Shown in pieces: positions 22,908 to 39,787 of a DNA stretch of 40,473 bases. The notes beneath the pieces are model-generated. The model was not told the DNA's origin. It saw only the letters and a program-made list of their open reading frames with translations, and ran no database searches. The stretch comes from an uncultured Candidatus Bathyarchaeia archaeon (lineage in GTDB: Archaea > Thermoproteota > Bathyarchaeia > Bathyarchaeales > WUQV01). A program made the translations under genes and the position numbers. Numbering within the stretch: the stretch's first letter is position 1; every line of letters starts with the position of its first letter. The DNA lies in assembly GCA_964403145.1 (NCBI GenBank), contig CAYOFB010000001.1, positions 1-40,473 on the forward strand. The letters are read 5' to 3'.

Positions 22908-24659
22908 TCACAATTCCTCTAAGTTTTCGAGTAACTCTTTAGGTTCTTTCCAATTTGGCGCAAGGTCTCTGGCTTTCGTAGCGCTCCGACGTATCACTCT
23001 TACCAATTTCTGCCTCTCGGTGCTTGTGAGCTCTCTAGATGCTTCCGCTTTAAGAAAATAATGATATGCATACAGCGCTTTTACGTAGTGAAAAGTTGCT
23101 TCGTTAGGATTAAGTCTGATGCATTTGTCAAGGATTTTTATAGCATCTTTTTCTTTTCCTTCCATGTGGAAATCTGATGCTACACCGTAGAAATAAGCTG
23201 CTTTCAAGGTGTTATCTTGAAGTTTGCTAAAATACTTTTTTGTATATTGTTTTCCCTTTAACACTTCCAAGATTTTTCTTCCATAATTTATCAGCTCTGA
23301 AAAAACTTCAAAATCCGTAAATGAGGGTGTTTTTATCCATTCTTGTCCCATAAATTTTAAAGGAGGATACTTATGTTCCGCCCGTATTCTTCCTTTCCAT
23401 CTAGATGCCTCGTTAATTATTTCTTTAGCAACCTTCTCTGCCAGTTTGGCGTCCTCAGGTTTTCTCCGTTTTAGGAGTAGAGTAGACGCGTAGTAACACA
23501 GTTCACAAAAATACACAGCTTTTTTTGGATGGTCTATTTTTCCTTTCATTTCATCAATTTCTTGGAGAATTTCACTAATGACAACCTCTAGTTGTCCGGG
23601 CACCTTTGAAAGCTCGATAAGACTTCTAAGCCTACCTCTGCATTCTTTAAAGTATTCTGCCAAGCGGTCATAATAAGCAAACAGTAGCTTAAGTTGCTTA
23701 TATGCTGCCTTATTAATGGAGGCCAATAGTTCCATAATTTCAGTTAGTGCGTCCTCGAGAGATATTCTTTCAGCTGGATCTGGTTCTAACATCTTTTTGA
23801 CTAGCGACTCCAATTTCTTCTCGAATTCGCTATTGCCTATTTTCACTATTTTATCTTTATTGCATGCCCATTTTCTCCAAGGTTTCTCATGCTTGTACTT
23901 CCTAGGATATCCTTTCTTCGGATCAGGCCAGATGTTACTCGTCCTTTCACCAATGGGATGGATTCCCGTTACAAGTTCGTACAAGATAACGCCTGCGGCA
24001 AAAACGTCAACCTTAGAAAAATCGGTTCCTTGCGTAAATTGTTCCGGTGCCATGTAAGGTCGGCTACCATATGGTCTTCCGATCTCTCTCCAAGCATTAG
24101 CATTGCCGAAATCTGCTAACTGTATTTTGTATCTAAACCAAGGCATATTTCTGGGAGGAAAATCAGCAAATTTTTCGCGAAGATCTTTAAGAAGAATATT
24201 TTCAGGCTTAAGATCTTGATGAGACTCAATTCCAACCTTTTTAGCATAAGTTAATGCTTTCAGTAGTTGGGCAATAAGTATGAGACTTTCAGTTATGTCA
24301 AGTTTTTGACGTTTTTCAAGATATGTTCGCAGATCTAGCTCGCAAAAGGGCATGCAAATGAGTGGCCTTCTCTTATAAAGGGTTATGTAGTGAGGAGACA
24401 GAATTAACGGGTGACCTTTAACTTTAAACCATTGACGCATTTCATGAACAAACTTCCGAATTTTATCTTTTTCAATTCCTTTAAGAGCCTCATCTTTTAT
24501 TGTCTTGTAGGCTACATACTCTGGCATGCCTTGCTGTCTCACAATATATACGATTCCTAGAGTGCCTTCTTTTTTCTCGACTATTTCTCCTCTTAGAGAA
24601 AATCCCAGAAGGATTTCATCTATTTTCTCCTTATCGACCATTTTCGCTACCTTTACCAC
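22908..24659 (-). CDS. Hanks-type Ser/Thr protein kinase (non-RD) with a C-terminal TPR-like helical-repeat domain
   Basis: 583 aa (GTG 24659, or ATG 24641). VAYKTIK (VAIK Lys), SHQDLKPENILL (catalytic loop with HQD instead of HRD), LADFGNA (DFG), YMAPEQ (APE), DVFAAGVILYELVTG and DPAERIS. The last roughly 280 aa are helical-repeat-like. Confidence 0.8.
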   Translation of the reverse strand: MVKVAKMVDKEKIDEILLGFSLRGEIVEKKEGTLGIVYIVRQQGMPEYVAYKTIKDEALKGIEKDKIRKFVHEMRQWFKVKGHPLILSPHYITLYKRRPLICMPFCELDLRTYLEKRQKLDITESLILIAQLLKALTYAKKVGIESHQDLKPENILLKDLREKFADFPPRNMPWFRYKIQLADFGNANAWREIGRPYGSRPYMAPEQFTQGTDFSKVDVFAAGVILYELVTGIHPIGERTSNIWPDPKKGYPRKYKHEKPWRKWACNKDKIVKIGNSEFEKKLESLVKKMLEPDPAERISLEDALTEIMELLASINKAAYKQLKLLFAYYDRLAEYFKECRGRLRSLIELSKVPGQLEVVISEILQEIDEMKGKIDHPKKAVYFCELCYYASTLLLKRRKPEDAKLAEKVAKEIINEASRWKGRIRAEHKYPPLKFMGQEWIKTPSFTDFEVFSELINYGRKILEVLKGKQYTKKYFSKLQDNTLKAAYFYGVASDFHMEGKEKDAIKILDKCIRLNPNEATFHYVKALYAYHYFLKAEASRELTSTERQKLVRVIRRSATKARDLAPNWKEPKELLENLEEL

Positions 24660-25911: not shown

Positions 25912-26592
25912 TTAATGATCGCGTTGAAAAATCAGCTCCTCAAGCCTTGGGTAGTCTCTTAGGAAGAGCAGAGGATTCCTTCTGTATCTCCTAATGGTCT
26001 CTGCAGCTTTTTCTCTTAAATACCAGAAGTCCTCCGATTCATCGTATGCTATTTCAAATCTGTCCTGTTTCCTGTACCATTCATAGAACTCCTTCGAGGA
26101 TGATTCTCTGACTTTGTTCGGTATGAAAATCACGATTTCCTTGTTTCCTCTTCTTATCTTCTTCAGTTTGCCTACATTCGCGAATCTTCCGCAATGCCTC
26201 ATTTTTAGGCCCGCATTCCTGAGAACCTCATAATCCTCGTCGTAGTGACAGTAAACGTTTCCTATCCCGTTCTTTAGAAGCCACTCTGCAACGTAGCTGT
26301 TATCTAGCAGAGAGCACGCTGCATTGTGGCATTCAACCGCATTGTAGTTGTTGATGAAAATTGCTAGGTCCTCGTACTTCACATCAAGATCATCGAAGAA
26401 AACCTCATTAACCTTATCTATAACCTTCTGGTTCTCTTCCTTCCTCCAGAAAATTTTCAGATTGATGAACGGATAACCACTCACTAGGTCATCCCTATCC
26501 CATAGATTGAGGTTCCATCCATACTCCAAGCATGCATACTTCTTATATTCATCAACAATTTCCAAAATCTTTTCGAGGTTTTTATCCTCCAT
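25912..26592 (-). CDS. hypothetical protein
   Basis: 226-aa ORF with protein-like composition and no motif I recognise. Last AT-rich gene before the GC-richer block. Confidence 0.5.
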   Translation of the reverse strand: MEDKNLEKILEIVDEYKKYACLEYGWNLNLWDRDDLVSGYPFINLKIFWRKEENQKVIDKVNEVFFDDLDVKYEDLAIFINNYNAVECHNAACSLLDNSYVAEWLLKNGIGNVYCHYDEDYEVLRNAGLKMRHCGRFANVGKLKKIRRGNKEIVIFIPNKVRESSSKEFYEWYRKQDRFEIAYDESEDFWYLREKAAETIRRYRRNPLLFLRDYPRLEELIFQRDH

Positions 26593-26689: not shown

Positions 26690-28726
26690 TCACCTTACAG
26701 TAACCACTCTGGAAGCCCCTCCCTCCTTCGTCACCCTGATGATATGATCAGCGAACCCTTCAAGCTCGCGTTCGTGCGATACCAGGATGACCTGCTCGCA
26801 GTTCAGCTCGTTCAGCACATCCCGGACTTTGAAAAGCTGCTCCCTGCTGAAACCGTCGGTCGGTTCGTCTAGTATGAGCAGCCCGGCACCGGCCGCGGTA
26901 GCGATTTCTTGTACAACCGTGTTGAGTGCGAGCCTGTACGCCAGAGCAACGCTTGTTCTCTCTCCCCCGCTGAGCGTGTCATACCTCTGCTCGTAACCGC
27001 TCCTTTCTATTATCGGGGTGAAATCCTCATCCACCCTGACCTGCAGCTCGGGATCCTCTATCAGGATGCTGAACCATTTCCTGAAAAGCTCGTTGAATCT
27101 CAGGTTTATTCTGGCCATAACGTGGCGCTCGATGCTTTCCACGGTTGGCGTGAAAAACTCCTCGAGCCATGTACGGTACTCGCTGAGCTCTTTAATCTCC
27201 TCGAGCTGTTTTTCTTTCCGCTCGATCTCCTTTAAGAGGTTTTCCTCGCTCTGCCGCTGAACTTTTATTTCGGCGCTTATTTCCTTGATGGTCGTTCTTA
27301 GGTCATCGAGCTCCTTTTGAAGTTTCTCATTTTCCGCTTCCAGTCGCTCCAGTTCCTGCCTGATGCCTTCCAGAGGTTTGAGTTCCTTCTCGGCCTCCTG
27401 TATCTCCCCTTTCAATTCGTTGATTTTCCCTTCAAGCTCCTTTCTTGCCTGCTCTTTTTCCCCGCGCAGCTTTTCCTTCTCCTCCATGCACTTCCTCAGT
27501 TCCTCGAGTTCCTTTCGGCTTTGCTCGTATTCCTTCGTCTTCTCTATAAGCTTCTCCAGCTCATCCTCCTTTTCCTGAAGTTTGCCTATCTCCTCGGACA
27601 ACTTTCTGATCTCGTCTTTGAGATGGGCCCCCTTCTTCCCGAACTCGGCAGGATCAACCGGTCTCTCGCACACAGGGCAGACTCCGCTCTTGAGAAGCGA
27701 TTCCACATTCTCTATGCGCTCTTCGAGCTTCCCGTGCATGGTCTGGGCCCTTTTCAGCTTCTCCCTCGTGTCCTCGAGTTCCCTGTCCAGCTCCTCAAGT
27801 GTCTTGTCGGTCGGTCTTGCTAGGGATTCAAGCTCCTTGATCCTCGGCTTTATCTCGTCATTCAGCTCCTTTTTCAGCCTTTGCAGCTCCTCGATGAGGG
27901 TACTTAGATTACTTTCAAAATCCCCGAGCCGCTCACGGAGAACGGGGAGCCTCGCTTCGATCCCGCGGAGCCTCTCCTTCTCCTCCCTCAGTTCCCGGAG
28001 TCTCTTCTCGATGTCACCGATCTTTCCCTCGAGTTCCCTTTTCTTTGCGTCCAGAGGCTTCAGCTTTTCCCCGAGTTCCACGATTCTTTTCCTGATCTCA
28101 TCCAGTTCCTTCCTTTTCTCCTCCAGATCTGAAGTCGCCCCCTTCAAGTATTCAACGCGACCTTGGATCTTCGCGGTCAGCAGCGCCGAGTTCTGAACGG
28201 CTGTTTTGTAGTCCTCTATCCTTAGGGCTTTCCTGAGTGTCTGAAGCCTGCTCTCCGCGCTTTCCAAGATTATCTGTTTCATTTCCTCCTGCGGGGTGAA
28301 TATCGCGTATCTGAAGATCACGCTCTTGGCCCGGGGATTGGCGGGTTCGTTGAACCCAAGGATCTGGAGAATTCTCTCCTTCATTTCGCTCGGTGACAGG
28401 TATTCCCTTCCCTCAGGCCCCTCGAGGTAGCATTCCCTCTGCTGGACAGACCTTCCCCTTCTCTCGAGTGCCCTGTGAACCACATACTCGGTCCCGTTGA
28501 CCTCGAATTTCAGGGTGACCGATCCCCTTTTCTCCCCGTTCCTGAGCAGGAAATCCCCGCTCAACGATCCAAGCCCGAAAAGGGCGAACTCTATAGCGTA
28601 GAGTATTGTTGACTTCCCTGATCCGATGTCGCCGGCGAAAAGCACGACTCCCTTTGGAAAGTTTATGGGTTCGTCCATCCCCGCGTAGCTTCTTATGTTC
28701 TCTAGGTGCAGGGATTTTATTATCAT
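26690..28726 (-). CDS. rad50: Rad50/SbcC-family SMC-like ATPase, short coiled-coil variant with zinc hook
   Basis: 678 aa. Walker A FAGDIGSGKST, zinc hook GVCPVCERP at mid-length, signature LSGGERTSVALAYRLAL, Walker B LLILDEPTDG, and VILVSHE. The ATG overlaps the Mre11 TGA (ATGA). Confidence 0.88.
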   Translation of the reverse strand: MIIKSLHLENIRSYAGMDEPINFPKGVVLFAGDIGSGKSTILYAIEFALFGLGSLSGDFLLRNGEKRGSVTLKFEVNGTEYVVHRALERRGRSVQQRECYLEGPEGREYLSPSEMKERILQILGFNEPANPRAKSVIFRYAIFTPQEEMKQIILESAESRLQTLRKALRIEDYKTAVQNSALLTAKIQGRVEYLKGATSDLEEKRKELDEIRKRIVELGEKLKPLDAKKRELEGKIGDIEKRLRELREEKERLRGIEARLPVLRERLGDFESNLSTLIEELQRLKKELNDEIKPRIKELESLARPTDKTLEELDRELEDTREKLKRAQTMHGKLEERIENVESLLKSGVCPVCERPVDPAEFGKKGAHLKDEIRKLSEEIGKLQEKEDELEKLIEKTKEYEQSRKELEELRKCMEEKEKLRGEKEQARKELEGKINELKGEIQEAEKELKPLEGIRQELERLEAENEKLQKELDDLRTTIKEISAEIKVQRQSEENLLKEIERKEKQLEEIKELSEYRTWLEEFFTPTVESIERHVMARINLRFNELFRKWFSILIEDPELQVRVDEDFTPIIERSGYEQRYDTLSGGERTSVALAYRLALNTVVQEIATAAGAGLLILDEPTDGFSREQLFKVRDVLNELNCEQVILVSHERELEGFADHIIRVTKEGGASRVVTVR

Positions 28727-29988
28727 TCGGGCACCTCCTTTATTCCCAGCGTTTCAACAGCATCTCTCAGGATTCTCTTTTCGTAATCCGCCTTGGTCTC
28801 GCTGTCCTTCTTTCCCTGTTTCAGCACCCTGAGCAGGTTCAGGGACAGGGCGACACCGGCGTCTCCCTTGAGTTTCGGGATGGAAACATTCACCGAGCCT
28901 ATGCTCTCCTTGAAAAGTTTTCTCTCAATCTCCTCCCGAGTCTCGCCTGCTACCCTGATCCTCGTGTACTCCTTGGAGGTAAGCCCGTGGTAGTTCATCA
29001 TGACGTGCAGCGCGCCCTTTCCCTCTATGATTTCCCTTATCCTCGCGAAATTCACGTCGGCGGTCCTTCCCGATGAGAGCTCTCCCCAGACCTTGAAAAG
29101 AACGAGTTTCCCCTCCGCGTCCATATCCTTGGCAATCCCCATCAGCTCGTCCTGCACCTCCTGAGCCGTCCTACCACCCGCATCGTACTCGACGATTTCG
29201 AAGTCGCAGGCTTTCACCTCGACGAACTCCACGCTCTCAACCCTGTCGGAGAAGTTAACCACGTAGAATCCCCTCTTCTCACCCTTCGCGCTCTTTTCAA
29301 GGTCGGTGTAGTTTGCCCCGAAGAGTGTTCCCGGAAACACCACGTGCTCGTACCCGGGCATGCTGGCGACGAGCCTCTCGTGGATATGCCCTCCGGCGTA
29401 ATAATTAAAGTTCTTCGGGAGGAGCGAGACAGGCATGGACTCCGTGTCGGCGATCGAGACAGGCCTGTACTCGTCGATCGCAGCGTGGAAGGCGAAGATC
29501 TTGAAGCCACTTTCTCTCTCGAGACTCTCCCTGTCTAGGATCTCGAAGAATTTTCTCTCCACGCCAGCCTTCCGTCTCGAGATGCCGGTTATCTTCGCAC
29601 CCGTTTTGTCGTCCACAACAAATCGGAGCCTGAGCTTCTCCCCCACCATCTCTCCGTAGGTCACCTTCCGTATGAGACCTGTCTCCTCGATTATGTCTAT
29701 CATGGATGTCTGCGTCGGGCTGAAGTCGTGGCTGCCGTAGATGACGTATATGTTAATGCCCTTCTCCCTCGCCTTCCTGAGGATCGCCACCGCCTGCTTT
29801 ACCACGGAGAGATCGGGGAGGTTTGAGTCGAAAAGATCACCGCTGATCACGATAAAGTCGACTTTCCTTTCAACGCACAGATCGATTGCCTTCCTGAAGG
29901 AATCCAGAACAAGATTCTTCAGGGTGCTGTGTCGAAAGGCGCCGAGGTGAACATCGGACATATGAGCGAAGCTGGGCATTTTTCTCAC
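28723..29988 (-). CDS. mre11: Mre11/SbcD-family calcineurin-like phosphoesterase nuclease
   Basis: 421 aa. Motifs [27 protein letters not shown] (GNHD with N to S), IV FAFHAAI, V GGHIHER. GTG 29988 overlaps the HerA stop (GTGA). The alternative ATG 29979 gives [13 protein letters not shown]. Confidence 0.88.
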
Positions 29989-31508
29989 CCTGTGTAAACC
30001 ACCTTCTTCGTCTCCTGCTTGGCTCCCTCGCGCTTGGCAAGCTCATCGAAAAGCGGGATCTGGATAGGGACGGCGAATTTTGTCAAAATGCTGCTGACAA
30101 TGGCCTCACCGACGTCGAGACTTGCAATCGTCCTGTCTTCCGTGGAGAGATCCTGAGCCGCGCTGTTTATGATGGCGTTCCTCTCGGACGCCATCTCGTT
30201 GCCAAGTATTATCTTCGTGTTCATGTTTGTCAGTATGTCCCTCGGGATCACGCTCGTCAGCTGGGTGATTGCTATGAGCCCCACCTTGAATTTCCTTCCC
30301 TCCCTCGCTATCCTGCTGTAGATGTTGTCGCCGGCGCTCGCCAGCCTCTCGCTTCCGAGAACCCTCGGCGCTTCCTCGATGACCACGCTGACAGGAACCT
30401 TCTCCCGGAGCTTCCCCTCGGACTTCGCCTTCTGGTGATTCTCGAGCACCTCAGTCGCGATTATGCTCCCGATGAGCAGCTCCGCCTCGTCTCCGAGCTT
30501 GGAGGTGTCTACTATCACCACCTTCCCGTCCTCCAGAGCGGTGACGATGTCATCCACGGTCGACTCGCCGGCGGTGTCGCTGAAAACCCTGTTCCTGCAC
30601 AGGATCCGGTCGTCCCTGACTTCCAAGGACAGCGCGGTTCTGAATATTCTCTGAAGAACTGTGAGTGTTCTGGGGTTGACTCCCCCGACCTCGGTTCCCC
30701 TCAGTATGTTTTCGATCCACAGTTCCCCGAATTCCCTGTGATAGAGCCGTATCGCGTGAACCTGCGCATCCGAGAAGGAGACTATGCCCCTGAAATGATC
30801 GGGCCTTATCGATCTCAGGTTTATCACGAGGGTTTTCCCTCCCGCAGGGGGATTCACCGAGTAGTAGAGCACGTTGTCTCCGGCCTTGGGATGATCCTTG
30901 AGACCGGGACCATTCCTGCCGTAGTACTCGTCGTGGGGATCCAAGACCAGCACACCAAACTTGCGCTGCCCTATCACACTCCATAGCATGACCTTGACGA
31001 GATTGCTCTTGCCCCTTCCAGTTGTCGAGGGTATTAGGATATGATGCGTGAAGGCCAGTTCACCGTCGAGATAAACGGGGACATCGATCACCTTGCTCCC
31101 GCTCCTGACCTTCCCCAGATAAACAGGGTTCGGAGGCTTTGTGAGGAATTTCAGGTCCTCGGGCTCGATGTGTCTAACATTTCCGAAGATCGCCGGAAGG
31201 GTTTTCGGCATGCGCGGGTTTTCCGTGACTCTCAGCACAACCTTTGCCTCCGCCAGTATGTAGTTCCTGAGCTCGGGATCCATGAAATCCAGCCCGCCTC
31301 CCAGCCCTTCGAGGCTCATGCCGGCTATCTGCTCCCGGGCCGTCCTCGAGATCTGGCTCCCGTATTCTAGGTTGTACACTTGGAGTATCGAGTAACCCTG
31401 CGGATCCTCGGCCACGAGCAGGTCGCCCAGCTCTATCTTGCTCCCGCTCTTTTCTCTTATCAGAATTCTACCAACCTGTCCACCTATTATCTGACCGCAC
31501 ACGCCCAA
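29985..31508 (-). CDS. herA: HerA-family hexameric DNA translocase/helicase
   Basis: 507 aa. HAS-barrel-like N-terminus ([15 protein letters not shown]...LGDLLVAE), Walker [14 protein letters not shown], Walker [12 protein letters not shown]. The start (TTG 31508 or GTG 31502) is within a few nt of the NurA stop. Confidence 0.88.
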
Positions 31509-31509
31509 A

Positions 31510-32628
31510 TCATATCACCTCCTTAAGCATGTTCAATATGCTGTGGGTATCGACGGCATAGATATGACGGGAAATTTTCTCCCAAGCTCCGAGACTCGAG
31601 ATCTCGGATAGGATCATTATCCGGTAAGTCTCAAGCTCGTTCTTCCTGACACGGGCGTTGTCATCCGCATCTATAAGCCCGTAAGGGTAGCCCGGGAGAC
31701 TGGGATCGCTCGAGTTCAGGGAAAGCTGACTGAAAATCTCGTTCAGGTCCTTCTCCGACAGGTCCCGGGCCTGCTCCGCCTGAATCTCGTACCTGTAGGC
31801 CCTCTTCGCCCTCGGATGCAACATCACGATGTAGATGTTCGCCTTGAGCGGGGGGTTCAGAGATATCGCAACCGGGTGGTAGTACCACGGCGCCTCCACG
31901 CCGTGCTGCTTGGCAAGCCATTTCACAGCCCCTATGAGGGAAACGCCGGTGGTGGTAAAGAGTCTGCTGCTCTTGGAGAGACCTGAAAAAATTACGCCTT
32001 TGCTCTTCGCCGCCGCGAAGGCCGCGAGCGCGTAGTCCGACTCGTTCTTGACGGACGTTCTCAAAGTCCCGTCCATTACCAGAACGTCTCCCCTTTCCAG
32101 CTCTTTCTCGACTATGAAACGCGCAAAGGACCACTCAGCAAATCTCCTAGCCACCGATGCGGCCCTAGACACGCTGGCCCTTGCCCTTCCGATCATGAGA
32201 GCCCTGTCAAACGAGTTGAACGACAGGTCCGAGGGATCGGGGAGGAATTCTATGAACCTGTCCGAGACCGGGAACAGCATGGTGTCGTAATAAACCTCGT
32301 CGTTCTCGAATCTTGCGACCGTCGCCGAGAGGAACTCTATCTTTTTCGGAAGGCTTGTCGCCCTGATCCTTCTTTTTCCCTTGAAGATGTTGAAGTACAC
32401 CCTGTTCAGCTGGACCGAGAAGTTCGGTGCCCCCACGAGTTCCCTGTTACCGCCGTCGATGAAGGCCATCTTCCTGTCATTTTCAGCGACGTCTATCCCG
32501 TGGAAGTTCTCAGGATGAAAGTTCACGGGCCTGTAATCGTGGTCGGCAAAGTGAGGCTCCCCTATGCCGGAGCTCTCTATCTTTTCACTCAATCTCCGAA
32601 CGAGTTTCTTAACAGCGTCACCTATCAT
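31510..32628 (-). CDS. nurA: NurA-family 5'-3' exo/endonuclease
   Basis: 372 aa. AFIDGGN (first catalytic Asp), VLVMDGTL, and [16 protein letters not shown] (the GYPYxL..A motif), which is the NurA signature set. Confidence 0.8.
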
Positions 32629-32634
32629 TCCCCA

Positions 32635-35013
32635 TCACCACACGATGATTCCAGTTGGAATTCTGACCTGCGCCGAGATGTACTCCCCCGTTCTCTGAGT
32701 GATTCTCTGTGGGAGGGCAAACTTCGGTGGCTGGAACAGCGAGAGCCAGTTGAGGTACTTGAGGTGAAAGTACTCCTTCACCAGCCCCTCGATGGTGGGT
32801 TCCTCGAGGTCGGAATCCACGTTGAAATGCTCAACCTTGACCAGCTGTATCGGTTGAACGGTCGCGAGCTCCTTCCCGGCCCACCTGTGAGGTACCGAGC
32901 TGACCAGAATGCCGCTCTTAGGGTTCTCTATTATGAAGATCCCGTGCCTCGGGTTCCTCCATCCCTCCTCGGTCCTCACCAGAACCCTCCGGTTCGGGGA
33001 CTTGTTCACCGCCACTATGTCTATCGAAACGCTGTCGGGAAGATCCCTCCTTTTCCTCATGGCGTCCGGTATTGGCTCGAGGCCGTCCTCGGGGATTCCT
33101 TTCTCGAAGACCTCCCTCATCAGCGCGCGCTCAGCCGGTTTTATCGGGCCGTCTTTGTACAGCACGATCCTCCTGAGCTCGAACCTGAGACGCGGCTCAA
33201 TTCTCGGGAAGAGCTCGGAATACCTCTTGCACACCCGAGCAATCTTCTCCATCAACTTGTAAAACGAGGCCCTCGTGAGGCCCTCTCCGCCGGACTGGAT
33301 GACATCGGACCATATAAAGCGGCCGTAGGGATCCGTCACGGCCGTGAAGACGCTGATCTCGGACTTGTACTTTTTCCTTCTAGATGTATCGAAGCAAGCG
33401 TAGGCCGTGATCCCGGGTTCATCGTAGATGTGGGAATCCGCGGGTTCCTTGCAAAGCCAGATGGCGGCCTGCCTGCCGTAGAGTTTCAGGTAAATCTGCG
33501 GCGCAAGGGTCTCACATATCCTAGTGTTGCCGTTCACTATCGACCTCAACGTCGAGACTTCGAGGCATTGTGTTTGGATTGGTTCAACGGCTCTCAGCGG
33601 CAAGGGAATAGCTGGGTTAAAGAATGCATCCTTCGCCGCGTAGTAGATGTCCCCCTCATAGCTTACATCGGGAAGAATCACGAAGATTATCTTCCTAGCG
33701 GATTCGGATTCTGTCACGGTGCTTATCATGTCATTGAAAGCTTCCACGTAATCGTTAACTCCCCTCCCCTCGGTGTATCTGATCCCGAAGCGCTGTTCCA
33801 AGCTGCCGAAGTTCAACTTGGAGTACGTGTCAGCGATCTTTCCCAGAGCCTTCTCGAGGATCCCCGCGACTTCAGGTGGCGCGACAACTCCGAAAACCCC
33901 ATCCACCTTGCCTGTGTACGGTTGGGCACCGCTGTATAGTGCGTCCCTGACTTCAAGGAGATTCACAGGCAGGTCTTCACCATCCTTTCTCAGCAAAACT
34001 TGGAAGTCCCTCTGCGACCTGAACCTCCCTAATCCCAATGTGACTGCGCTGCTCGAAGCTGGAAGGGTGTCAAATACCACTTCGAACCCGAGGAACCTTA
34101 TCTTACCGAGCCTGTTCAGCAAAGTTAGCACGCGTGACACCCTCTCGTCGGGTGTCAGCCTTCTGGCTGCGTACCCCTTTCTACCGTACTCAAACTCCCT
34201 GTAAACGCAAATCTCGGGGTAATGGTACGGCTTCGGGTTTCCCGGGAATTTGACAATGACAACCCTGTGATCAGCCTCCACGGGCACCCCTCTCCTTCGC
34301 CAAAGGGCGATGTCAATATTCCGCGACTCGCCCACCCTTTTCTCTGAAACTCCCGTCACAAATGCAGCCTTCCAGTCGGGCAGGACTCTGACTTTGATGG
34401 ACTCCTCCTCCGTGGCTCGCATCGCCTCTTGGAATTTCAGCGGGATCATTATCCTGAACCCCGCGTCAATCCAAAGCGAAGGCCTCCCGTGCACGATGCA
34501 AGGCGACACCCTGTAGGCGTGCTTCGTTCTTTCTGGTGAAACGAATTCGCTTGAGTCGACATACACGCGGGTACCTACCTTTATAAACCCCGCTCTCCTA
34601 AGCTCGGCTCTAACCCGATTTTCCCAAGCCGTCTGGAAGATGCAAGCGTGATCCCCCATCCTCAGAGTGAGAGCCCTTGCAAACTCCAGTTGGACATTAT
34701 CGGTCTTGAGGCAACCTTTTATTTTCGGAACTTTATCCTCCCCGCCGAAAACGACGAGATCTCCGCCGAGGGCATCTATCTGCTTCACCGGCACATGAGC
34801 CGCATCGAAGCCCTTTGAAGCTAGGATATTCTCGATCCCTTTGATAACCCTCCATCTTTCCGGCCCGGTCTTCCCGGCTCTTTCCTTGAGGTTGAATATC
34901 AGCGCCTGTGCTTGTTCTTGGAGGGCCCTTTGCCCCATCCACAGATTGACGTGCGTCTCCCCCTTTGATTTTCCAATTATTCCCTTCGCTTGGAGAGCTG
35001 CCAGTTTCACCAT
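32635..35013 (-). CDS. long prokaryotic Argonaute (N/PAZ-like, MID, PIWI)
   Basis: 792 aa. MID-like IIFVILPD...DIYYAAKDAF...IQTQCL (YxxxK and Q of a 5'-end pocket). PIWI motifs AYACFDTSRR (first Asp), SGGEGL (candidate Glu finger), IVLYKDGP (RDG-like second Asp), IVAVNKSPNRRV, and a C-terminal LPQRITQRTGEYI. A PAZ-like KPYHYPEICVY is also present. Confidence 0.8.
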   Translation of the reverse strand: MVKLAALQAKGIIGKSKGETHVNLWMGQRALQEQAQALIFNLKERAGKTGPERWRVIKGIENILASKGFDAAHVPVKQIDALGGDLVVFGGEDKVPKIKGCLKTDNVQLEFARALTLRMGDHACIFQTAWENRVRAELRRAGFIKVGTRVYVDSSEFVSPERTKHAYRVSPCIVHGRPSLWIDAGFRIMIPLKFQEAMRATEEESIKVRVLPDWKAAFVTGVSEKRVGESRNIDIALWRRRGVPVEADHRVVIVKFPGNPKPYHYPEICVYREFEYGRKGYAARRLTPDERVSRVLTLLNRLGKIRFLGFEVVFDTLPASSSAVTLGLGRFRSQRDFQVLLRKDGEDLPVNLLEVRDALYSGAQPYTGKVDGVFGVVAPPEVAGILEKALGKIADTYSKLNFGSLEQRFGIRYTEGRGVNDYVEAFNDMISTVTESESARKIIFVILPDVSYEGDIYYAAKDAFFNPAIPLPLRAVEPIQTQCLEVSTLRSIVNGNTRICETLAPQIYLKLYGRQAAIWLCKEPADSHIYDEPGITAYACFDTSRRKKYKSEISVFTAVTDPYGRFIWSDVIQSGGEGLTRASFYKLMEKIARVCKRYSELFPRIEPRLRFELRRIVLYKDGPIKPAERALMREVFEKGIPEDGLEPIPDAMRKRRDLPDSVSIDIVAVNKSPNRRVLVRTEEGWRNPRHGIFIIENPKSGILVSSVPHRWAGKELATVQPIQLVKVEHFNVDSDLEEPTIEGLVKEYFHLKYLNWLSLFQPPKFALPQRITQRTGEYISAQVRIPTGIIVW

Positions 35014-35684
35014 GTCTCATCACCTATGAGCTTTTTCTGCAGGTCCTTCCCCACGTACGGGGCCAGTATCATCTCGGCCACGTAGTTGAGGATCACGGCG
35101 TGCTCGGCATCGCTGAATCTTCTCTGATGAATCGTGATCACGCCGCGCTTGTCAAAGCTGACCGTCGCCTCTTCTATGCCCTCAAGGTTCACCTTGATCT
35201 TTGCCAAGGGTTCGCTGCCGTAATCCTCCCACAGCTCGGTATCTGTCACTTCCCTCCCGATGCACCTGAGGCGATCCACCCTCTCCAGCCCTCTTCTCAC
35301 GGGTGTCAGATCGAACTGCCTGACATCCCTAGCTTTCTCAAGTATTTTCCTCAGGGTATTCTCCTCGAGCCTCAGGGGAGTCAGGACACAGTCCTTGATG
35401 ATCTTGCTCAGGAAATCGAGAACCTTTTCCTGAATGTCGGATGTCCCGTACCCGAATGCAACGAAGTTTTGCCTGAGAAAGTGTATCGGAATCTTCTGAA
35501 GCGCTTTATCCCTTTTCACTCCCTGCAGGGTTTCATACTCCAACTCGTACTCGAACCCGAACTTGCACGTGACAATGTCGCCCTGAGTTTCAACGCTCCC
35601 GGGCAGGATTCCCTCTTTGAACTCCTTCTCGCTGTTCTCTATAGAAAGCTCGTTGAGTTTCCGGACTAGCTCATCCGTTGACAT
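35007..35684 (-). CDS. hypothetical protein co-translated with the Argonaute
   Basis: 225 aa from ATG 35684 (MSTDELVRKLNEL..., GGGGAT upstream). The track ORF starts at GTG 35735 (242 aa). Its stop and the Ago start overlap (ACATGGTGA). No recognisable motif. The antisense ORF 34965-35669 has antisense-like L/P/H/Q-rich composition. Confidence 0.6.
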   Translation of the reverse strand: MSTDELVRKLNELSIENSEKEFKEGILPGSVETQGDIVTCKFGFEYELEYETLQGVKRDKALQKIPIHFLRQNFVAFGYGTSDIQEKVLDFLSKIIKDCVLTPLRLEENTLRKILEKARDVRQFDLTPVRRGLERVDRLRCIGREVTDTELWEDYGSEPLAKIKVNLEGIEEATVSFDKRGVITIHQRRFSDAEHAVILNYVAEMILAPYVGKDLQKKLIGDETW

Positions 35685-35715
35685 TCCGATCCCCAGATGC
35701 CTGATGAACAGGAAA

Positions 35716-36834
35716 CTAGGCACGGTAAAACTCACCCTCCCGGTACAACTTTAGTTGCACGAATGGGAGCAGGTCTCTCCTTATCCTGTAAAAAGCGAAT
35801 CTTCCCAGCTTGGTGCGTGTCACCACCCGGCCGGAGAGCAGCTGCTCGAGATGATAGGAAATCGTCGCTTTGTCCCTGTTCAGTATTTCAACGAGCCTGA
35901 TCGGACGTATGCCGCGCGGATCCTTGCTGAGGATGATGTGCTTGAGGACCAAGAGTTGCATGTCGCTGAGCCTGTTTAGCAGCTCATCCAAACTCAACAG
36001 GCCCATGGCACCAGCCGCTTTCCTGACGGCTTCAAGGTCGATCCCTGAACCGCCGCTCCTGAAAGATTCCCTGAAACCCCGGAAAAAGAGCGTTATCGCT
36101 ACCCTCGGGATTCCCATGGAGTACCTGTGGATTTCGTCACAGATGTCCTTGGGAATGTTCAGCTTTCCGTCCGAGATGAAACTCGCAATTTTCGAGATGA
36201 GCTGGAACGTTTCCTCGGGGCTGAAGGGATTGAGGAAAACTTCCTCAGTCGTTTCAACGATCTCTTCAATGTCGTCCCTCTCGTATTCCCAAGTGACCGG
36301 GCACCAGCTGGTTATGATCAGAACGCCTCTTCCCTTTGCGCGTATCAGCTCCCTCAGCGAGTATCTTATGCTAGCATCGCTTTCACAGTTGTCCACAATC
36401 AGGATGTCCGGCCTTCCCTCACGAACCTCCTCAAGAAGCTCCTCGAACCTCTGACTCTCGGCCTCCACCTCCGAAAATTCGGCGGCATCCATGAAAAGCG
36501 CGCGCATGCCGACGTTGCTCGAAAAGCCGAAGATCACCCTCAGGATGTGCGTCCTCCCGGAGCCCGACACGCCTAGGATCGGAATGTGCAAGACCTCGGA
36601 TTTTTTCCTAGAATAATAGCCCATGTACTCAGCGATGGTTTCCAGTTCCCGCGTTCTGTCGACCGTGGCCTCCAGGTTAGTTCTCAGAAATTCCTCCACC
36701 TCGTCCAAGCTGAATTTACTACTGTCGATGCCCAGCCCCTCGAGCCATGAATAGAACTTCTTCATGGCCCCTTTCAGTCCCCTTTCGAAAGCCTCGGCCA
36801 GCCTCTCATACATTGAACTCACCGAACCATTCAA
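35716..36834 (-). CDS. AAA+ (Orc1/Cdc6- or Arch_ATPase-like) protein with a degenerate P-loop and a C-terminal winged helix
   Basis: 372 aa. P-loop ILGVSGSGRTHIL (Arg where the Walker A Lys is expected), Walker-B-like DILIVDNCE (DN rather than DE), and a C-terminal ArsR-like wHTH (ATISYHLEQLLSGRVVTRTKLGRFAFYRI). Confidence 0.65.
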   Translation of the reverse strand: MNGSVSSMYERLAEAFERGLKGAMKKFYSWLEGLGIDSSKFSLDEVEEFLRTNLEATVDRTRELETIAEYMGYYSRKKSEVLHIPILGVSGSGRTHILRVIFGFSSNVGMRALFMDAAEFSEVEAESQRFEELLEEVREGRPDILIVDNCESDASIRYSLRELIRAKGRGVLIITSWCPVTWEYERDDIEEIVETTEEVFLNPFSPEETFQLISKIASFISDGKLNIPKDICDEIHRYSMGIPRVAITLFFRGFRESFRSGGSGIDLEAVRKAAGAMGLLSLDELLNRLSDMQLLVLKHIILSKDPRGIRPIRLVEILNRDKATISYHLEQLLSGRVVTRTKLGRFAFYRIRRDLLPFVQLKLYREGEFYRA

Positions 36835-36960
36835 ACCTCAAACGATTCAAACTAATAAAACCATTACCGCCTTATAAACTTTTCGCCTGCAGGTTCTGTT
36901 GATATAAATTAGCTGGTAGCTGGCACTCAAATTTTTAATTCTATTACTTTACAGCACCTG

Positions 36961-38013
36961 TCATTGGTTAAAATCTGAGCACAAAAATCTCCTCCTTCTT
37001 CCTTCTTCGTTAATGACACTTATTAAATTAATTTCTATGAGTTTAGTCAGGTACTTTCTTATGGTTCTTGGTGCTATTGGTTTAATTCCAAGCTTTCTAG
37101 CCTTTTCCTCATATTTCCTATAGATTTCCGAGCTTTCAATTCTTGGATTTTGCTTAATTATTTCATAGAGGATGTTTTGGTCTCTATTCAGTTTTGATAG
37201 CAAATAGGACTGCCTTTGCTTCCTGAAAGATTCCCAAGCATTATCAACGTCTGTTTCACTAATCTTTTTTCTTCCCGCCAGCTCGGCGTTTTCCGCCGCT
37301 TTTCTGAGCATTTGAATCGCTACTCTCGCGTCTCCTTGGGCCAGCTCTGCGATCTTCTCTATGAGCTCTGGATTAATGGCCCCTTTAACTAATCCAATTT
37401 CTGCTCTTGGCTTAAGAATTTCAACTATATCCTTCACTTTATAAGGAGGGAAATATAGCGGTTCAAAAATAAATCTCGATCTAACTCTCTTATCAAGAGA
37501 GGAAAGCCACAAGTTGGTGTTTGAAATTGCAAAAATCCCTGTTTTGCCTATATCCGAAAACGAGTAAAGTAGTGTGCTCTTATCGTCTACCATGTCCAGT
37601 TCATCGAGTACCAAAATAAAGGAGTTCTGGCCAACCTTTTTCCTGATAACATTGATCATGGCCTTCGTATTTATTCTTGGAGACGGAAAGCCTCCAATCT
37701 GCATAACGATGTTACAGAGGACATTGTAAGTCGATCTTTGCTCCCAGCAATTGACGTAAGCTATCGGCTTGTCACAGTTTTTTCTGAATTCCTCCATCAC
37801 ATACTTGACCAGACAGGTCTTTCCTGTTCCAGGAGGCCCATAAATAAGGAGATTTTCAGGCCATCTGTTCCTAAAAGCAGGAAGCATGGCTTTCTTGATT
37901 CTTTCAAGCTGCTCCTCTCTACTCGGAAGCCTAGGCGGAATGTAGTTCTCTTCGAAAACATAAGGGTTCTTGATCAGAGTTGTATAGCTAACCTTAAAAG
38001 CCATAATTGGCAT
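36961..38013 (-). CDS. orc1/cdc6: Orc1/Cdc6 replication-initiator-family AAA+ protein
   Basis: 350 aa. FENYIPPRLPSREEQL (initiator N-terminal motif), Walker A LLIYGPPGTGKT, Walker B FILVLDELD, sensor-1 IFAISNT, and a C-terminal winged helix. Confidence 0.85.
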   Translation of the reverse strand: MPIMAFKVSYTTLIKNPYVFEENYIPPRLPSREEQLERIKKAMLPAFRNRWPENLLIYGPPGTGKTCLVKYVMEEFRKNCDKPIAYVNCWEQRSTYNVLCNIVMQIGGFPSPRINTKAMINVIRKKVGQNSFILVLDELDMVDDKSTLLYSFSDIGKTGIFAISNTNLWLSSLDKRVRSRFIFEPLYFPPYKVKDIVEILKPRAEIGLVKGAINPELIEKIAELAQGDARVAIQMLRKAAENAELAGRKKISETDVDNAWESFRKQRQSYLLSKLNRDQNILYEIIKQNPRIESSEIYRKYEEKARKLGIKPIAPRTIRKYLTKLIEINLISVINEEGRRRRFLCSDFNQ

Positions 38014-38056
38014 GAAGCTATGCCAATTTTTAAGGATTTTGAAAGTAACTTGCCGA

Positions 38057-39346
38057 TTATTCCGAAAAGGCTTTCTGCAAGTTTATTTGGCTTGGAACAA
38101 GAACACCATCTCGCAAAAGGCAAAATATAATCATATATGTCCTTAGCTCATCAAGTCCTATTTTCGAAGAGATTTCTGTTACATTCAGATGGTGACAGTT
38201 CGATTTTATTACCTTTAACGCCTTTTTAACTTTATTTTTTGGTATCTTCTTAATCTCGTTTTCAAATGGGGTTAAGGGGAAATACCACCCTACCCTCCCG
38301 TTTATATACTCCAAGGATAAATGATCCGTTGTCAGCTTATCCAAGAGTTTTATCAGCTTAATTCTGAAGGAAACTGGAACGTGCCTTTTACCTTGAATTA
38401 AGAGTTTGAGCTTGTTTCGTGGAAAGATCTCATCAAATTGGCATTCGCTTTCTAAGACTTGTTTATTATCCTTGGGATTTAGAAAGCAAACTGTGGGGAT
38501 TTTTGATAGTCGAGGAATAATGAAATTTAATAATGTCATTTTTCTGAGCGCCGAGATTAAAGCATCCGAGTTTCTAGTGATGAAGTATGAAACACAATCT
38601 GCCTCATATTCCCTGAACATTGCTGATGAAATCTTAATGAAGATTGGTAGGGAGAAAACTAACCAGAATATAGCAAAGACCACCAAGGATGTCGTTACAT
38701 CATAAAAGAAAATGGGTAATATGGTTTCTTCGATAAACAGCAGGGAAAAGGCAAAGCAGTTGTAGATCACAAGGGGGAGGATTAAGTAAATCTTGTCAAA
38801 CAGAACATTCCAATAGGTGACGAAGGTGAGATCTGATCTAATATGCCATATCTCGTGGGCAAGTACTGCTTTCAGCTCTTCATCGTTCAAATTAGCGCTG
38901 ATCAGTTCGGGTATGAGAATGAACTTCTTCTTTCTTGAAGAGGCCGATATTATGTTGGGAATATCTTCTTTTGTCATGAGAATTTTAGGCTCATCAACCC
39001 CGAGTACTGTGCAAATTTCTCGGGCTAGTCTGACGCATCTGCTATTAGGATCGGCTTCGTAAAGATTTTTGCTTATGCTTTCTAGGAGAGTGTAGGCTGG
39101 GGAAGCATATAGTTTCCTTCCCCGGTAAAGCGAATAGATTGTTACTGTCGATATCAAAGCGTAACCAAATAAGGACCAGAAAACGACTACGGGATTGCTA
39201 ATCAAGGATTGATAGATTTGATAGAGATTATGTGAAGGTTTCGGCGGGACAAGTATGAACAACGAGAGATTGAGCAGACGATAGGCGGAGATACACGCGA
39301 CCAATGCATTTAGGAGGAATAGTACTTTTATCCTATCGATAAACAT
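38057..39346 (-). CDS. M48/M56-like membrane zinc metalloprotease with a C-terminal soluble (wHTH-like) domain
   Basis: 429 aa. Several TM segments, HExxH (VLAHEIWHIRS), and a downstream FREYEADCVSY matching the E-x-x-A-D third-ligand motif of M48/BlaR1-type peptidases. Confidence 0.7.
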   Translation of the reverse strand: MFIDRIKVLFLLNALVACISAYRLLNLSLFILVPPKPSHNLYQIYQSLISNPVVVFWSLFGYALISTVTIYSLYRGRKLYASPAYTLLESISKNLYEADPNSRCVRLAREICTVLGVDEPKILMTKEDIPNIISASSRKKKFILIPELISANLNDEELKAVLAHEIWHIRSDLTFVTYWNVLFDKIYLILPLVIYNCFAFSLLFIEETILPIFFYDVTTSLVVFAIFWLVFSLPIFIKISSAMFREYEADCVSYFITRNSDALISALRKMTLLNFIIPRLSKIPTVCFLNPKDNKQVLESECQFDEIFPRNKLKLLIQGKRHVPVSFRIKLIKLLDKLTTDHLSLEYINGRVGWYFPLTPFENEIKKIPKNKVKKALKVIKSNCHHLNVTEISSKIGLDELRTYMIIFCLLRDGVLVPSQINLQKAFSE

Positions 39347-39358
39347 CTTACTTAGGAG

Positions 39359-39652: not shown

Positions 39653-39716
39653 TTGGATCCCTCCTCAGAAAAGTAAGCTGAGTTTTATTTGGTATATCAA
39701 TTTTCCGACGTTAATC

Positions 39717-39735: not shown

Positions 39736-39787
39736 TTCTCCGCAGAATCTATGCTCTCTAATTAAGAGCAATGTTTCGGTAAGAAAG

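Follow-up and report, generated by a model that had tools for sequence, protein, structure and literature searches.

The window, i.e. the entire 40,473-nucleotide stretch of DNA analysed here, contains at positions 26690-36834 seven minus-strand genes which are read, with moderate confidence, as a pAgo-centred DNA-interference operon. The Argonaute (Ago) of this operon is a divergent, long-A-type long Argonaute. Together with an AAA+/wHTH protein and a 242-aa protein, it is predicted to be co-transcribed and translationally coupled with an intact NurA-HerA-Mre11-Rad50 set, which would produce guides from DNA ends and degrade targets marked by the Ago. The defence role and every mechanistic step below are proposed on the basis of sequence. 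To our knowledge, archaea possess neither RecBCD nor AddAB; the operon would hard-wire an archaeal equivalent of these complexes to an Ago, and the arrangement, found in dozens of lineages, may reveal the source of the DNA guides used by archaeal Argonautes. A description of such an Ago-resection system was not found in the searchable literature, in agreement with the first-pass annotation, to which no described pAgo system with a full NurA/HerA/Mre11/Rad50 set was known.

It can be observed from direct reading of the junctions that the seven genes run head to tail and either overlap or are spaced by at most 6 nt. The first ORF, encoding the AAA+/wHTH protein, was called at 35716-36834 (minus strand, as for all features described here), for which ATG 36813 (365 aa), where the JGI and ENA copies place the start, is probably to be preferred to TTG 36834. 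The second ORF, for the 242-aa protein (35007-35735), overlaps both neighbours. Its start had earlier been placed at ATG 35684; GTG 35735 is the most likely start since the N-terminus that it encodes (PSFLF...) is kept in homologues, and this ORF overlaps the stop of the AAA+ gene by 20 nt. A 7-nt overlap, ATGGTGA, leads into the Ago gene (792 aa; 32635-35013), the TGA of which is followed by the 6-nt spacer TGGGGA and the ATG of NurA (372 aa; 31510-32628). The NurA TGA is separated by 1 nt from the TTG start of HerA (507 aa; 29985-31508), which overlaps Mre11 (421 aa; 28723-29988) as GTGA, while Mre11 overlaps Rad50 (678 aa; 26690-28726) as ATGA. Since median spacers of -17, +1, +5, -4, +4, and -4 nt hold across 21 complete homologous loci, the tight coupling of the seven genes exceeds chance; the Mre11/Rad50 overlap is -4 in 21/21. 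The junctions and the spacers thus agree on a tightly coupled operon, as had been claimed from the first reading. On its upstream side, the sole spacer longer than 20 nt is a candidate archaeal promoter region (36835..36960), read directly from the sequence, in which a TATA-like TTTATAA (36872-36878) is preceded by a purine-rich CGAAAAG. Directly beyond lies an Orc1/Cdc6 replication-initiator homologue (36961..38013; NCBIfam TIGR02928, 7.8e-67). Cdc6-like genes accompany the cassette in the window and at L001, L008/L035, L010, L025, L042, L060, L068, and L085, representing a recurrent neighbour outside the coupled block. Downstream of Rad50, after 97 nt, a 226-aa protein (25912..26592) probably lies outside the operon core; it is shared only with L001 (87% identity), not being found at the other loci in the neighbourhood comparison, and family searches gave only a weak PHROG match.

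The 792-aa protein is a full-length long Argonaute of a small, divergent clade that is invisible to Pfam, in which zero matches were obtained. The PADLOC pAgo model PDLC02436 (SiAgo-type) matches residues 373-781, the MID-PIWI half, at 1.2e-44, and profile matches to long Agos in the PDB include VbAgo (2.7e-21). The protein comprises an N-PAZ lobe (about 1-370) and a MID-PIWI lobe (about 373-792). Its AF2 model has pLDDT 78 and pTM 0.71, and the top Foldseek matches are CpAgo (E 2.4e-31, TM 0.60), PliAgo, CbAgo, PIWIs, and hAgo2, with TM about 0.6. The PADLOC model, PDB profiles, and fold comparison therefore converge on the long Argonaute that had been recognised initially. Regarding catalysis, D542 (33388-33390), E577 (33283-33285), D621 (33151-33153), and Q773 (32695-32697) are invariant across 26 clade members, the last three corresponding in profile alignment to E512, D546, and D660 of TtAgo. 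Y/K-R/Q/K residues resembling those of a MID pocket are also kept. The truly inactive relatives P0100 and P0101 have lost the catalytic residues. The catalytic impairment hinted at in the first-pass annotation is not supported, the fourth position alone being unusual. Slicing activity is nevertheless uncertain, because Gln at this position falls outside the canonical D/H/K set.

The catalytic motifs of the NurA-HerA-Mre11-Rad50 set appear intact. NurA is matched by Pfam NurA (1.7e-06; 28.1 bits, with the cut-off at 21), and its motifs F.DGGN, FAEW, and D.H are kept in 95% or more of the 21 loci, as are SGKST (Walker A), the CP.C.R hook, LSGGE, ILDEPT, and VSHE of Rad50. The latter matches Pfam AAA_23, SMC_N, and Rad50_zn_hook, with a short coiled coil and a zinc hook C350-P-V-C353 at 27668-27679. 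HerA, a hexameric translocase/helicase (Pfam DUF87, 1.8e-26), conserves Walker A TTGRGKSN and Walker B LVLD.HDEYY and is the best-conserved component, with a mean pairwise identity of 0.68. Mre11 (Pfam Metallophos, 8.9e-14; NCBIfam Mre11_Pyroc, 1.9e-32) conserves D12-x-H14, GDLF, GSHD, FH, and GHxH, where GSHD has Ser at a position at which Asn is usual. Of the two other partners, the AAA+/wHTH protein is a DnaA/RuvB/Cdc6-like ATPase with Walker A G..GSGKT and a C-terminal ArsR-type winged helix (PDB profiles: ArsR 2e-06, DnaA 3e-05, RuvB lid 3e-05; Pfam on 9 homologues: HTH_5, MarR_2, AAA_16, Bac_DnaA). It is co-conserved directly 5' of Ago in 16/21 complete type-A loci, plus type-B loci, and is possibly a regulator or loader. 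The 242-aa gene always sits between the AAA+ gene and Ago. Its product, which has no match in Pfam, NCBIfam, PHROGs, PADLOC, or PDB profiles, shares 23-73% identity and 19 invariant residues in 9 aligned loci, and is possibly an adaptor linking Ago to the nuclease complex.

The neighbourhood check that had been proposed at the outset demonstrates that the adjacency recurs widely. The Ago clade comprises 48 clusters at 90% identity; among the 42 informative ones, i.e. non-redundant members with enough flank, 35 have the Ago followed directly by NurA, HerA, Mre11, or Rad50, and the gene order takes at least three forms. HerA, Mre11, and Rad50 occur together in 26 of the 31 clusters whose flank reaches 6.5 kb or more, and a search started from HerA gave three further linked loci. 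Three loci with full flanks (L009, L014, and L072) are without a detectable resection partner. Type A has the order NurA-HerA-Mre11-Rad50, while type B, in Halobellus clavatus, a Gammaproteobacteria MAG, and Iainarchaeum, has the order Mre11-Rad50(900 aa)-NurA-205aa-HerA. Beside the Ago, L057 and L060 carry a different NurA/HerA-like pair, L010 a Cas4+SF1 Dna2-like nuclease-helicase plus Mre11-Rad50, and L011 an AddA/RecB-like UvrD+PD-(D/E)XK protein. Cas4-type domains are limited to the two sister loci L010 and L011, as helicase fusions. The link of Ago to resection genes is not due to chance; it appears to have arisen several times with different machinery, and the comparative data support functional coupling.

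In the preferred model, Mre11-Rad50 would recognise and open free or blocked DNA ends, which would be abundant on linear, replicating, or already-cut invader DNA. HerA-NurA would then translocate and degrade, releasing short 5'-phosphorylated ssDNA. Provided that the NurA products are guide-length 5'-phosphorylated oligonucleotides, as assumed here, such fragments would be taken up as guides by the conserved MID pocket, and guide-loaded Ago would bind complementary invader DNA and nick or cut it. The fresh ends would return to the resection machine, which would destroy the target and generate more guides in a self-amplifying loop. It should be noted that the comparative data do not choose between guide generation and recruited degradation as the putative role of these enzymes. 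The possible but unlikely case that they act as effectors only, as in DdmDE, would require guides from elsewhere, e.g. transcripts or guide-independent chopping by Ago, and a weakened slicer serving as a guide-directed sensor that recruits or licenses Mre11-Rad50 and HerA-NurA for processive degradation. The non-canonical D-E-D-Q tetrad is consistent with this, as are partners that in every case combine a helicase or translocase with a nuclease and are able to degrade DNA processively; the 242-aa protein, dedicated to the system, could serve as recruitment adaptor. However, the invariant D-E-D in 26/26 members argues that Ago catalysis is retained. The two models are not mutually exclusive, and sequence favours neither over the other.

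The genomic setting bears on a further question, namely whether the cassette serves defence or repair. In the window, the operon has a GC content of 0.542, compared with 0.422 in the chromosomal part (1-7720), 0.378 in the 8-26 kb stretch, and 0.415 in the 37-40.5 kb stretch, confirming a block richer in GC than both flanks (about 54% within a Bathyarchaeota contig of 38-42%). Its neighbours are an integrase, type II methylases, a DUF1156/HmaB-like methylase, GmrSD/HEC-05, and a kinase, and a second contig carries the block at 79% nucleotide identity. The discordant GC, the integrase-bearing defence island, and this recurrence support horizontal acquisition of the block as a cassette; the mobile cassette suggested previously holds for this window, whose copy of the resection set is mobile and GC-discordant. 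The set is not, as had been supposed, the Ago's "own" paralogous lineage. Type-A modules (NurA about 371, HerA 510, Mre11 418, and Rad50 677 aa) are an ordinary Bathyarchaeia operon type, since Ago-free operons of the same order and sizes exist among housekeeping genes on chromosomes of 1.2 and 1.98 Mb (HerA identity 65-70%; 43-70% over the window's proteins) and since Ago-linked and Ago-free copies interleave in the HerA tree, a neighbour-joining tree without support values. The module and the ordinary chromosomal operons of these archaea are phylogenetically indistinguishable; therefore, the Ago may in some genomes adjoin the cell's only repair operon, which may suit a repair role as well as defence. 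The type-B Halobellus version scores far below haloarchaeal equivalogs.

A repair or recombination role, with the Ago trio as an accessory to the double-strand-break repair operon of the cell or element, is accordingly to be weighed, and is considered rather improbable. The trio might steer homologous recombination or stimulate it, act in resolving replication intermediates, or help the carrier element to replicate or be maintained. Besides the ordinary operon type, the recurrent Orc1/Cdc6 gene points in this direction, as do the implication of TtAgo in chromosome decatenation, that of NgAgo in stimulating recombination, and the Mre11/Rad50 homologues that phages such as T4 encode for recombination-dependent replication. 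However, linked loci lie in defence or mobile neighbourhoods (HsdR, Mrr, NOV_C, ParB, and integrases near other loci), whereas the Ago-free operons sampled have metabolic and housekeeping neighbours. Moreover, Ago evolves much faster (mean identity 0.45 versus 0.51-0.68 for resection genes), as arms-race genes would; its relatives were not found on the viral contigs searched; and the clade has a patchy, HGT-like distribution over Thermoproteota, Halobacteria, DPANN, and bacteria. The Ago and resection modules also appear to reshuffle, because the pairwise identities of the four resection genes correlate with one another at 0.85-0.96, as against only 0.45-0.62 with those of Ago, and because the window's resection genes resemble the Ago-free operon L087 (Mre11 59%, Rad50 53%) more than they do other Ago-linked sets (Mre11 about 50%, Rad50 about 45%). 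Such reshuffling, the start/stop overlaps kept between Ago and NurA in 21 loci, and the joining of one Ago clade to differing orders and families, including Dna2-like and AddA-like substitutes, an independent convergence on one biochemical activity that is hard to account for without selection on the link, make it highly improbable that the AAA-242aa-Ago trio merely inserted 5' of a well-expressed repair operon to borrow its expression, with adjacency kept by descent or block transfer, even if Ago-linked and free operons are closely related and the type-A arrangement could in principle reflect one insertion and subsequent spread.

Comparison with known systems places the proposed interference operon more clearly. 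Among PADLOC models, that of the SiAgo-type system (PDLC02436) best matches the MID-PIWI half of the window Ago, but it has only 460 positions, whereas the window Ago has a full N-PAZ lobe and the window is without membrane-effector-type partners. In DdmDE, a plasmid defence of Vibrio cholerae, the pAgo-like, catalytically dead DdmE recruits DdmD, a single SF2 helicase-nuclease. Both arrangements pair a guide-directed Argonaute-family protein with a motor-nuclease that degrades, or here would degrade, recognised DNA; the window system, however, keeps D-E-D, and its partner is a four-protein resection machine. Compared with the canonical archaeal herA-mre11-rad50-nurA operon, the four families are unchanged and their motifs intact, but three translationally coupled genes including the Argonaute are added upstream, and the window's block is GC-discordant, within an integrative element and defence island. 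The stand-alone long-A pAgos CbAgo, TtAgo, and SeAgo rely on host RecBCD or AddAB for guides (PMC10164581; PMC12094033), and guide-directed CbAgo cleavage leads to RecBCD processing (PMC10164581). Guide supply and target destruction are, as proposed here, tied to double-strand-break end processing, and Ago cleavage sets off more resection; the resection enzyme in those cases is an unlinked housekeeping complex, whereas its archaeal analogue shares the Ago operon and, in the window, is mobile. In APACE1 (Mol Cell 2025), a long-A pAgo is accompanied by Cas4-family ACE1, which processes siDNA and boosts interference, and guide generation where RecBCD and AddAB are absent was described by its authors as unclear (PMC12094033). 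Both systems co-encode, in one operon, a long-A-type pAgo with a nuclease related to DNA-repair complexes, and share the concept of a pAgo that brings its own guide-processing enzyme where RecBCD/AddAB are missing. APACE1 is cyanobacterial and relies on one small ssDNA endonuclease without a motor, whereas the window system is mainly archaeal, with six accessory genes encoding ATP-driven Rad50 and HerA, the nucleases Mre11 and NurA, the AAA+/wHTH protein, and the 242-aa protein; its Ago has a D-E-D-Q tetrad and belongs to another clade, one that Pfam does not detect.

The seven minus-strand open reading frames of the cassette (26690-36834) encode, in order, an AAA+/winged-helix protein, a 242-aa protein, a long Argonaute (Ago, 792 aa), NurA, HerA, Mre11, and Rad50. 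The first three are referred to here as the Ago trio and the last four as the resection genes. ORF calling placed all seven exactly where the first-pass annotation had put them, and the junctions were read base by base. The 242-aa gene and Ago overlap as ATGGTGA, the Ago TGA is followed by the spacer TGGGGA and the NurA ATG, a single nucleotide separates the NurA TGA from the HerA TTG, and HerA/Mre11 and Mre11/Rad50 overlap as GTGA and ATGA, respectively. Spacers are uniformly tiny across the 21 complete loci with the gene order NurA-HerA-Mre11-Rad50 (type A). The presence of the 242-aa gene was borne out but its proposed start at ATG 35684 was not: GTG 35735, which creates a 20-nt overlap with the AAA+ stop, is most likely the start, since residues encoded from there are kept in homologues and would be dropped with ATG 35684. 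The first gene probably starts at ATG 36813, giving the 365-aa product called in other copies. Within the sole sizeable upstream spacer, the TATA-like TTTATAA at 36872-36878 is a candidate promoter element. The GC content of the cassette is 54.2%, against 37.8-42.2% in its surroundings.

No match to the 792-aa protein was found in Pfam, NCBIfam, PHROG, or, by single sequence, PDB. A 4-sequence query of PDB also returned nothing, and a 24-sequence profile was needed, which aligned near full length to solved long Agos (VbAgo, 2.7e-21, positions 144-741). The PADLOC pAgo model matched at 1.2e-44. An AF2 model built from 12 sequences (pLDDT 78, pTM 0.71; a 4-sequence version reached a pLDDT of only 44) resembled full-length CpAgo, PliAgo, CbAgo, PIWIs, and hAgo2 (best E 2.4e-31; TM ~0.6 over ~850 columns). 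Profile and model together display the entire long-A architecture N-L1-PAZ-L2-MID-PIWI, and on these grounds the protein is taken to be a true long Argonaute. Its clade is small, with 85 of 1.84 billion representative proteins at E <= 1e-3. A broad Ago alignment queried against a word-indexed protein database recovered the same 4 proteins only. Most members (P0001, P0005-P0015, and the Agos of loci L084-L086) carry no Pfam Piwi or PAZ annotation and are labelled “hypothetical protein” in every source.

For the catalytic site, TtAgo from pTT27 served as the residue ruler, D478, E512, D546, and D660 having been confirmed in its sequence. In the profile alignment E577, D621, and Q773 correspond to TtAgo E512, D546, and D660, and the first Asp of the Ago, in FD[TV]SRR, aligns to GLDVGTR of CpAgo. 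None of the 26 clade members compared deviates at D542, E577, D621, or Q773. The tetrad is therefore D-E-D-Q and departs from the canonical long-A DEDX, in which X is D, H, or K (PMC6299218, PMC12094033). From these residues the Ago would be no obviously dead enzyme, and slicing is uncertain. A putative MID 5'-phosphate motif (Y/H/R-K ... Q ... K) consists of the conserved Y457, K/R461, Q482, Q506, and K510, which are spaced as such a motif would require. The clade member of Halobellus, WP_089764886.1 (762 aa, the same length as the Ago of locus L013), is classed longA in Table S1 of Ryazansky 2018, with its tetrad marked “putative” and its MID motif listed as “YR-putative” (PMC6299218). Gln also occupies the fourth catalytic position in distant relatives beyond the core clade (P0085-P0113; motif [LV]VQ..G[EK]), and in two of these, P0100 and P0101, the Asp residues are all lost, which suggests a wider “DEDQ” group with occasional inactivation. 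A broken Ago is present in one locus (L004:1647-4033, MAG GCA_023256075.1), as two ORFs of 484 and 288 aa, owing to a frameshift, pseudogenisation, or assembly error; a related Thermoproteota MAG holds an intact 795-aa counterpart (P0064).

The four partners were identified as Rad50, Mre11, HerA, and NurA by Pfam, NCBIfam, and PADLOC, and in the 21 complete type-A loci the catalytic motifs of all four are intact. Phosphoesterase motifs I-V of Mre11 (D-x-H, GDLF, GSHD, FH, and GHxH) are each present in at least 95% of these loci. It can be observed that motif III (residues ~85-89; window gene 28723-29988) reads GSHD, in place of the canonical GNHD, in at least 95% of them. In Rad50 the Walker A, LSGGE signature, Walker B, and H-loop are conserved together with CP.C.R at 350-355; Pfam Rad50_zn_hook falls on residues 330-380, and the coiled coil of this 678-aa protein is short. 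HerA was detected through DUF87 (1.8e-26) and NurA at 28.1 bits against a cut-off of 21, both with conserved motifs. The product of the first gene combines a DnaA/RuvB/Cdc6-type AAA+ ATPase with a C-terminal ArsR-type winged helix. For the 242-aa protein no relatives were detectable outside these operons. PADLOC also matched LmuB (Lamassu) and mad3, mad6, and mad8 (MADS), which were rejected as generic; those to LmuB, mad3, and mad8 are attributed to general SMC and HerA similarity. A Lamassu system, suggested by LmuB as the best PADLOC match of Rad50, was ruled out by the lack of LmuA and LmuC matches, the CPxCxR zinc hook, and the overlapping Mre11 gene.

The recurrence of this association was analyzed in 16 genomic and 52 metagenomic Ago-anchored loci, mapped with locally built profiles and de-duplicated at 90% Ago identity into 48 clusters. 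Where at least 1.2 kb of downstream sequence is available (42 clusters), the gene next downstream on the same strand is a resection gene in 35; where at least 6.5 kb is available (31 clusters), HerA, Mre11, and Rad50 occur together in 26. Three loci with full flanks (L009, L014, L072) contain no detectable partner, and no relatives were found on IMG/VR viral contigs. Several architectures can be distinguished. Type A, with the gene order of the window and a Rad50 of ~675 aa, occurs in Bathyarchaeia, Nitrososphaerales, and Thermoproteota; in type A2, seen in several metagenomic loci, the AAA gene is divergent and the 242-aa gene absent. In type B the Ago trio is followed by Mre11, Rad50 (900 aa), NurA, a 205-aa protein, and HerA, and its carriers are Halobellus clavatus, a Gammaproteobacteria MAG, Iainarchaeum, and marine metagenomes. 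The extra gene, conserved between NurA and HerA (L013:17311-17934, L017, L022, L047-L050), encodes a protein of ~205 aa for which no family match was obtained. Type C (L057, L060) contains a different NurA/HerA-like pair. In L010 a Dna2-like 901-aa Cas4+SF1 protein replaces NurA-HerA before Mre11-Rad50, and in L011 an AddA-like 1000-aa UvrD+PD-(D/E)XK protein follows the Ago. Among the carriers, Halobellus clavatus CGMCC 1.10118 has its operon at ~550-572 kb of NZ_FNPB01000001, and a Bathyarchaeota MAG has one on the 2.36-Mb contig CAVSBL010000002.1. As a separate observation, a NurA-like (366 aa) and HerA-like (493 aa) pair of the kind adjoining the Ago in type C loci (listed as L057, L060, L076, L015) is found as a second pair just upstream of the housekeeping operon on a Bathyarchaeota chromosome (L081:6133-8717). 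MjAgo (MJ1321) may adjoin rad50-mre11 (MJ1322, MJ1323). Four or five distinct machines for end resection have been joined to a single Ago clade by independent convergence, and such convergence is a strong argument for a functional link and against mere hitch-hiking. We consider a functional link between the Ago and the resection genes to be very probable.

The first-pass annotation had regarded the resection set as the Ago's own. For type A this claim is not supported: in the NJ tree, HerAs of operons adjoining an Ago (linked) interleave with those of the same operon without one (free), and the free operons lie in housekeeping contexts. On two Bathyarchaeota chromosomes (CP070659, 1.98 Mb; CP070791, 1.2 Mb), nurA-herA-mre11-rad50 is located without Ago among FEN1, tRNA synthetase, and ilv genes, with the order and protein sizes of the window. 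These proteins are 43-68% identical to those of the window, the same range as between Ago-linked loci. No housekeeping synteny (FEN1 etc.) common to free chromosomal and linked loci was found. Cassette-type HerA comprises more than 120 clusters at 63-72% identity. When five HerAs of unknown linkage near linked ones in the tree were sampled, three proved linked, with the neighbours methylase and MazE (L084), HsdR and integrase (L085), and ParB, Mrr, and NOV_C (L086), and two were free (L083, L087). One of the free loci, L087, holds the nearest relative of the window's own resection set, the Mre11 and Rad50 of the window being 59% and 53% identical to it against ~50% and ~45% for other linked sets. 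Pairwise identities correlate at 0.85-0.96 among resection genes and at 0.45-0.62 between Ago and resection genes. Very low NCBIfam equivalog scores, considered as a sign of specialised paralogues, were dropped for type A, since Ago-free chromosomal operons are equally divergent. We read the type-A module as the ordinary resection operon of these archaea, to which the Ago trio appears to have been joined repeatedly, or which the trio appears to have swapped by recombination. For the type-B set of Halobellus the paralogue argument stands: scored against haloarchaeal models, this set reaches 153 against 1000 bits for Rad50_Halo and 70 against 550 for Mre11_Halo, and on these scores is clearly not the haloarchaeal housekeeping orthologue. 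Even in the absence of an Ago, this kind of repair operon can occupy defence-like surroundings: in L077-L079:8880-21527 an OLD/TOPRIM ABC ATPase, Eco57I-type R-M genes, and a Dcm methylase come directly after an Ago-free nurA-herA-mre11-rad50, the HerA of which is recorded in 77 blocks of the contig collection (24 contigs read).

The proposal that the window carries a mobile cassette was supported by the GC step (0.54 against 0.38-0.42), a tyrosine integrase (21615-22814), and the proximity of R-M, GmrSD, and kinase genes. The first 1-7.7 kb are chromosomal, with tRNA-Thr, TtuA-like, GNAT, and Pelota genes, and the Pelota groups with Bathyarchaeota MAG proteins. From ~8 kb a defence island (8200-24659) extends upstream of the cassette in window coordinates. 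In addition to the integrase it contains two type II N6/N4 methylases (8923-11368), a DUF1156/HmaB/PglX-like methylase (11639-13834), a TGT gene that is possibly DpdA-like (13831-15318), an 815-aa HerA-like ATPase with a TrmB/AgaR-like wHTH (16303-18750), GmrSD/HEC-05 (18869-20494), and a Ser/Thr kinase resembling mad6/PD-T4-6 (22908-24659). After the cassette follow an Orc1/Cdc6 gene (36961-38013) and an M48 peptidase. A second contig carries the same cassette at 79% nucleotide identity, surrounded by other genes. In most other loci the GC of the cassette equals that of its flanks, and composition gives no mobility signal there. Terminal direct or inverted repeats bounding the GC-rich block were looked for and none found. 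Our reading is that the seven-gene unit moves and that the window copy would be a recent, GC-discordant import. Cassette proteins also turn up in MAGs assigned to Aenigmarchaeota, Hydrothermae, and Poribacteria, labelled “hypothetical protein” in every case; such scattered binning is what a mobile segment of odd composition typically shows, and these copies are probably mis-binned owing to their GC. An Orc1/Cdc6-family gene lies immediately beside the cassette in many otherwise different loci (the window, L001, L008/L035, L010, L025, L042, L060, L068, L085), and could be the replication module of the carrier element or a further component of the system. GC content varies like a mosaic along the carrier element: the part of the window with the Cdc6 and M48 peptidase genes (37000-40473) is at 0.38-0.43, a block of 0.50-0.54 that encodes a DUF87 protein of 705 aa and an AAA ATPase resumes past the window's end (L005:1-5000), and the corresponding stretch of L001 (1-8000) is at 0.42-0.53 throughout.

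Regarding the kind of link between Ago and resection genes, we infer and favour a loop. Mre11-Rad50 and HerA-NurA would turn DNA ends into short ssDNA, which the Ago would take as guides; the guided Ago would mark or cut matching DNA, and resection of the new ends would both destroy the target and yield more guides. Cleavage by an Ago is known to set off processing of the ends (PMC10164581). In a more far-reaching and tentative form, which we hold to be rather improbable, the Ago, the 242-aa protein, and HerA-NurA/Mre11-Rad50 would be one guide-programmable resection complex, which makes its own guides from DNA ends, directs processive destruction of the DNA that they match, and has repeatedly captured the end-resection machine of the host lineage (NurA-HerA, Dna2-like, AddA-like). 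The main rivals to the loop are a pure effector model, DdmDE-like, and a repair-accessory role.

The cassette is a pAgo system with accessory proteins. No pAgo system with a full NurA/HerA/Mre11/Rad50 set was known to the first-pass annotation, and full-text searches of the openly accessible literature turned up no account of a pAgo paired with NurA, HerA, Mre11, or Rad50. NurA, DUF87, Metallophos, SbcC, and Mre11 are unmentioned in the main text and supplements of Ryazansky 2018 (PMC6299218), and likewise in Makarova 2009; in Ryazansky 2018 the Halobellus protein was already catalogued as a long-A pAgo. In the CbAgo paper SbcCD is a double-strand-break control only, and no Ago partner (PMC10164581). 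The APACE1 paper of 2025 describes the remaining accessory proteins of long-A pAgos (“helicases, phosphatases, NTPases, nucleases”) as still uncharacterised (PMC12094033).

With an Ago tied to the archaeal end-resection machine in several architectures and across dozens of independent lineages, the question of guide source becomes directly testable; among the carriers, Halobellus clavatus CGMCC 1.10118 is a haloarchaeon available in culture. To our knowledge, all archaea lack RecBCD/AddAB, among them the source organisms of PfAgo and MjAgo, two enzymes in wide use. The source of long-A guides in organisms without these enzymes is an acknowledged open question (PMC12094033). If the guide-programmable complex is real, it would amount to an archaeal “RecBCD with an Argonaute attached” and supply the missing siDNA-biogenesis pathway of archaeal Argonautes. 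The D-E-D-Q tetrad and two unknown partners may represent new biochemistry relevant to programmable nucleases. Furthermore, an Ago clade invisible to Pfam has been hidden everywhere among hypothetical proteins, and core DNA-repair operons can enter mobile defence cassettes wholesale. As for known systems, APACE is defined by a Cas4-family ACE nuclease heterodimer with pAgo; the window contains no Cas4-family gene, and among relatives of the cassette Cas4 or PD-(D/E)XK domains occur only in the helicase fusions of L010 and L011. The favoured loop would mirror the dependence of bacterial long-A pAgos on RecBCD/AddAB, as well as the guide-processing role of ACE1 in APACE1 (PMC12094033).
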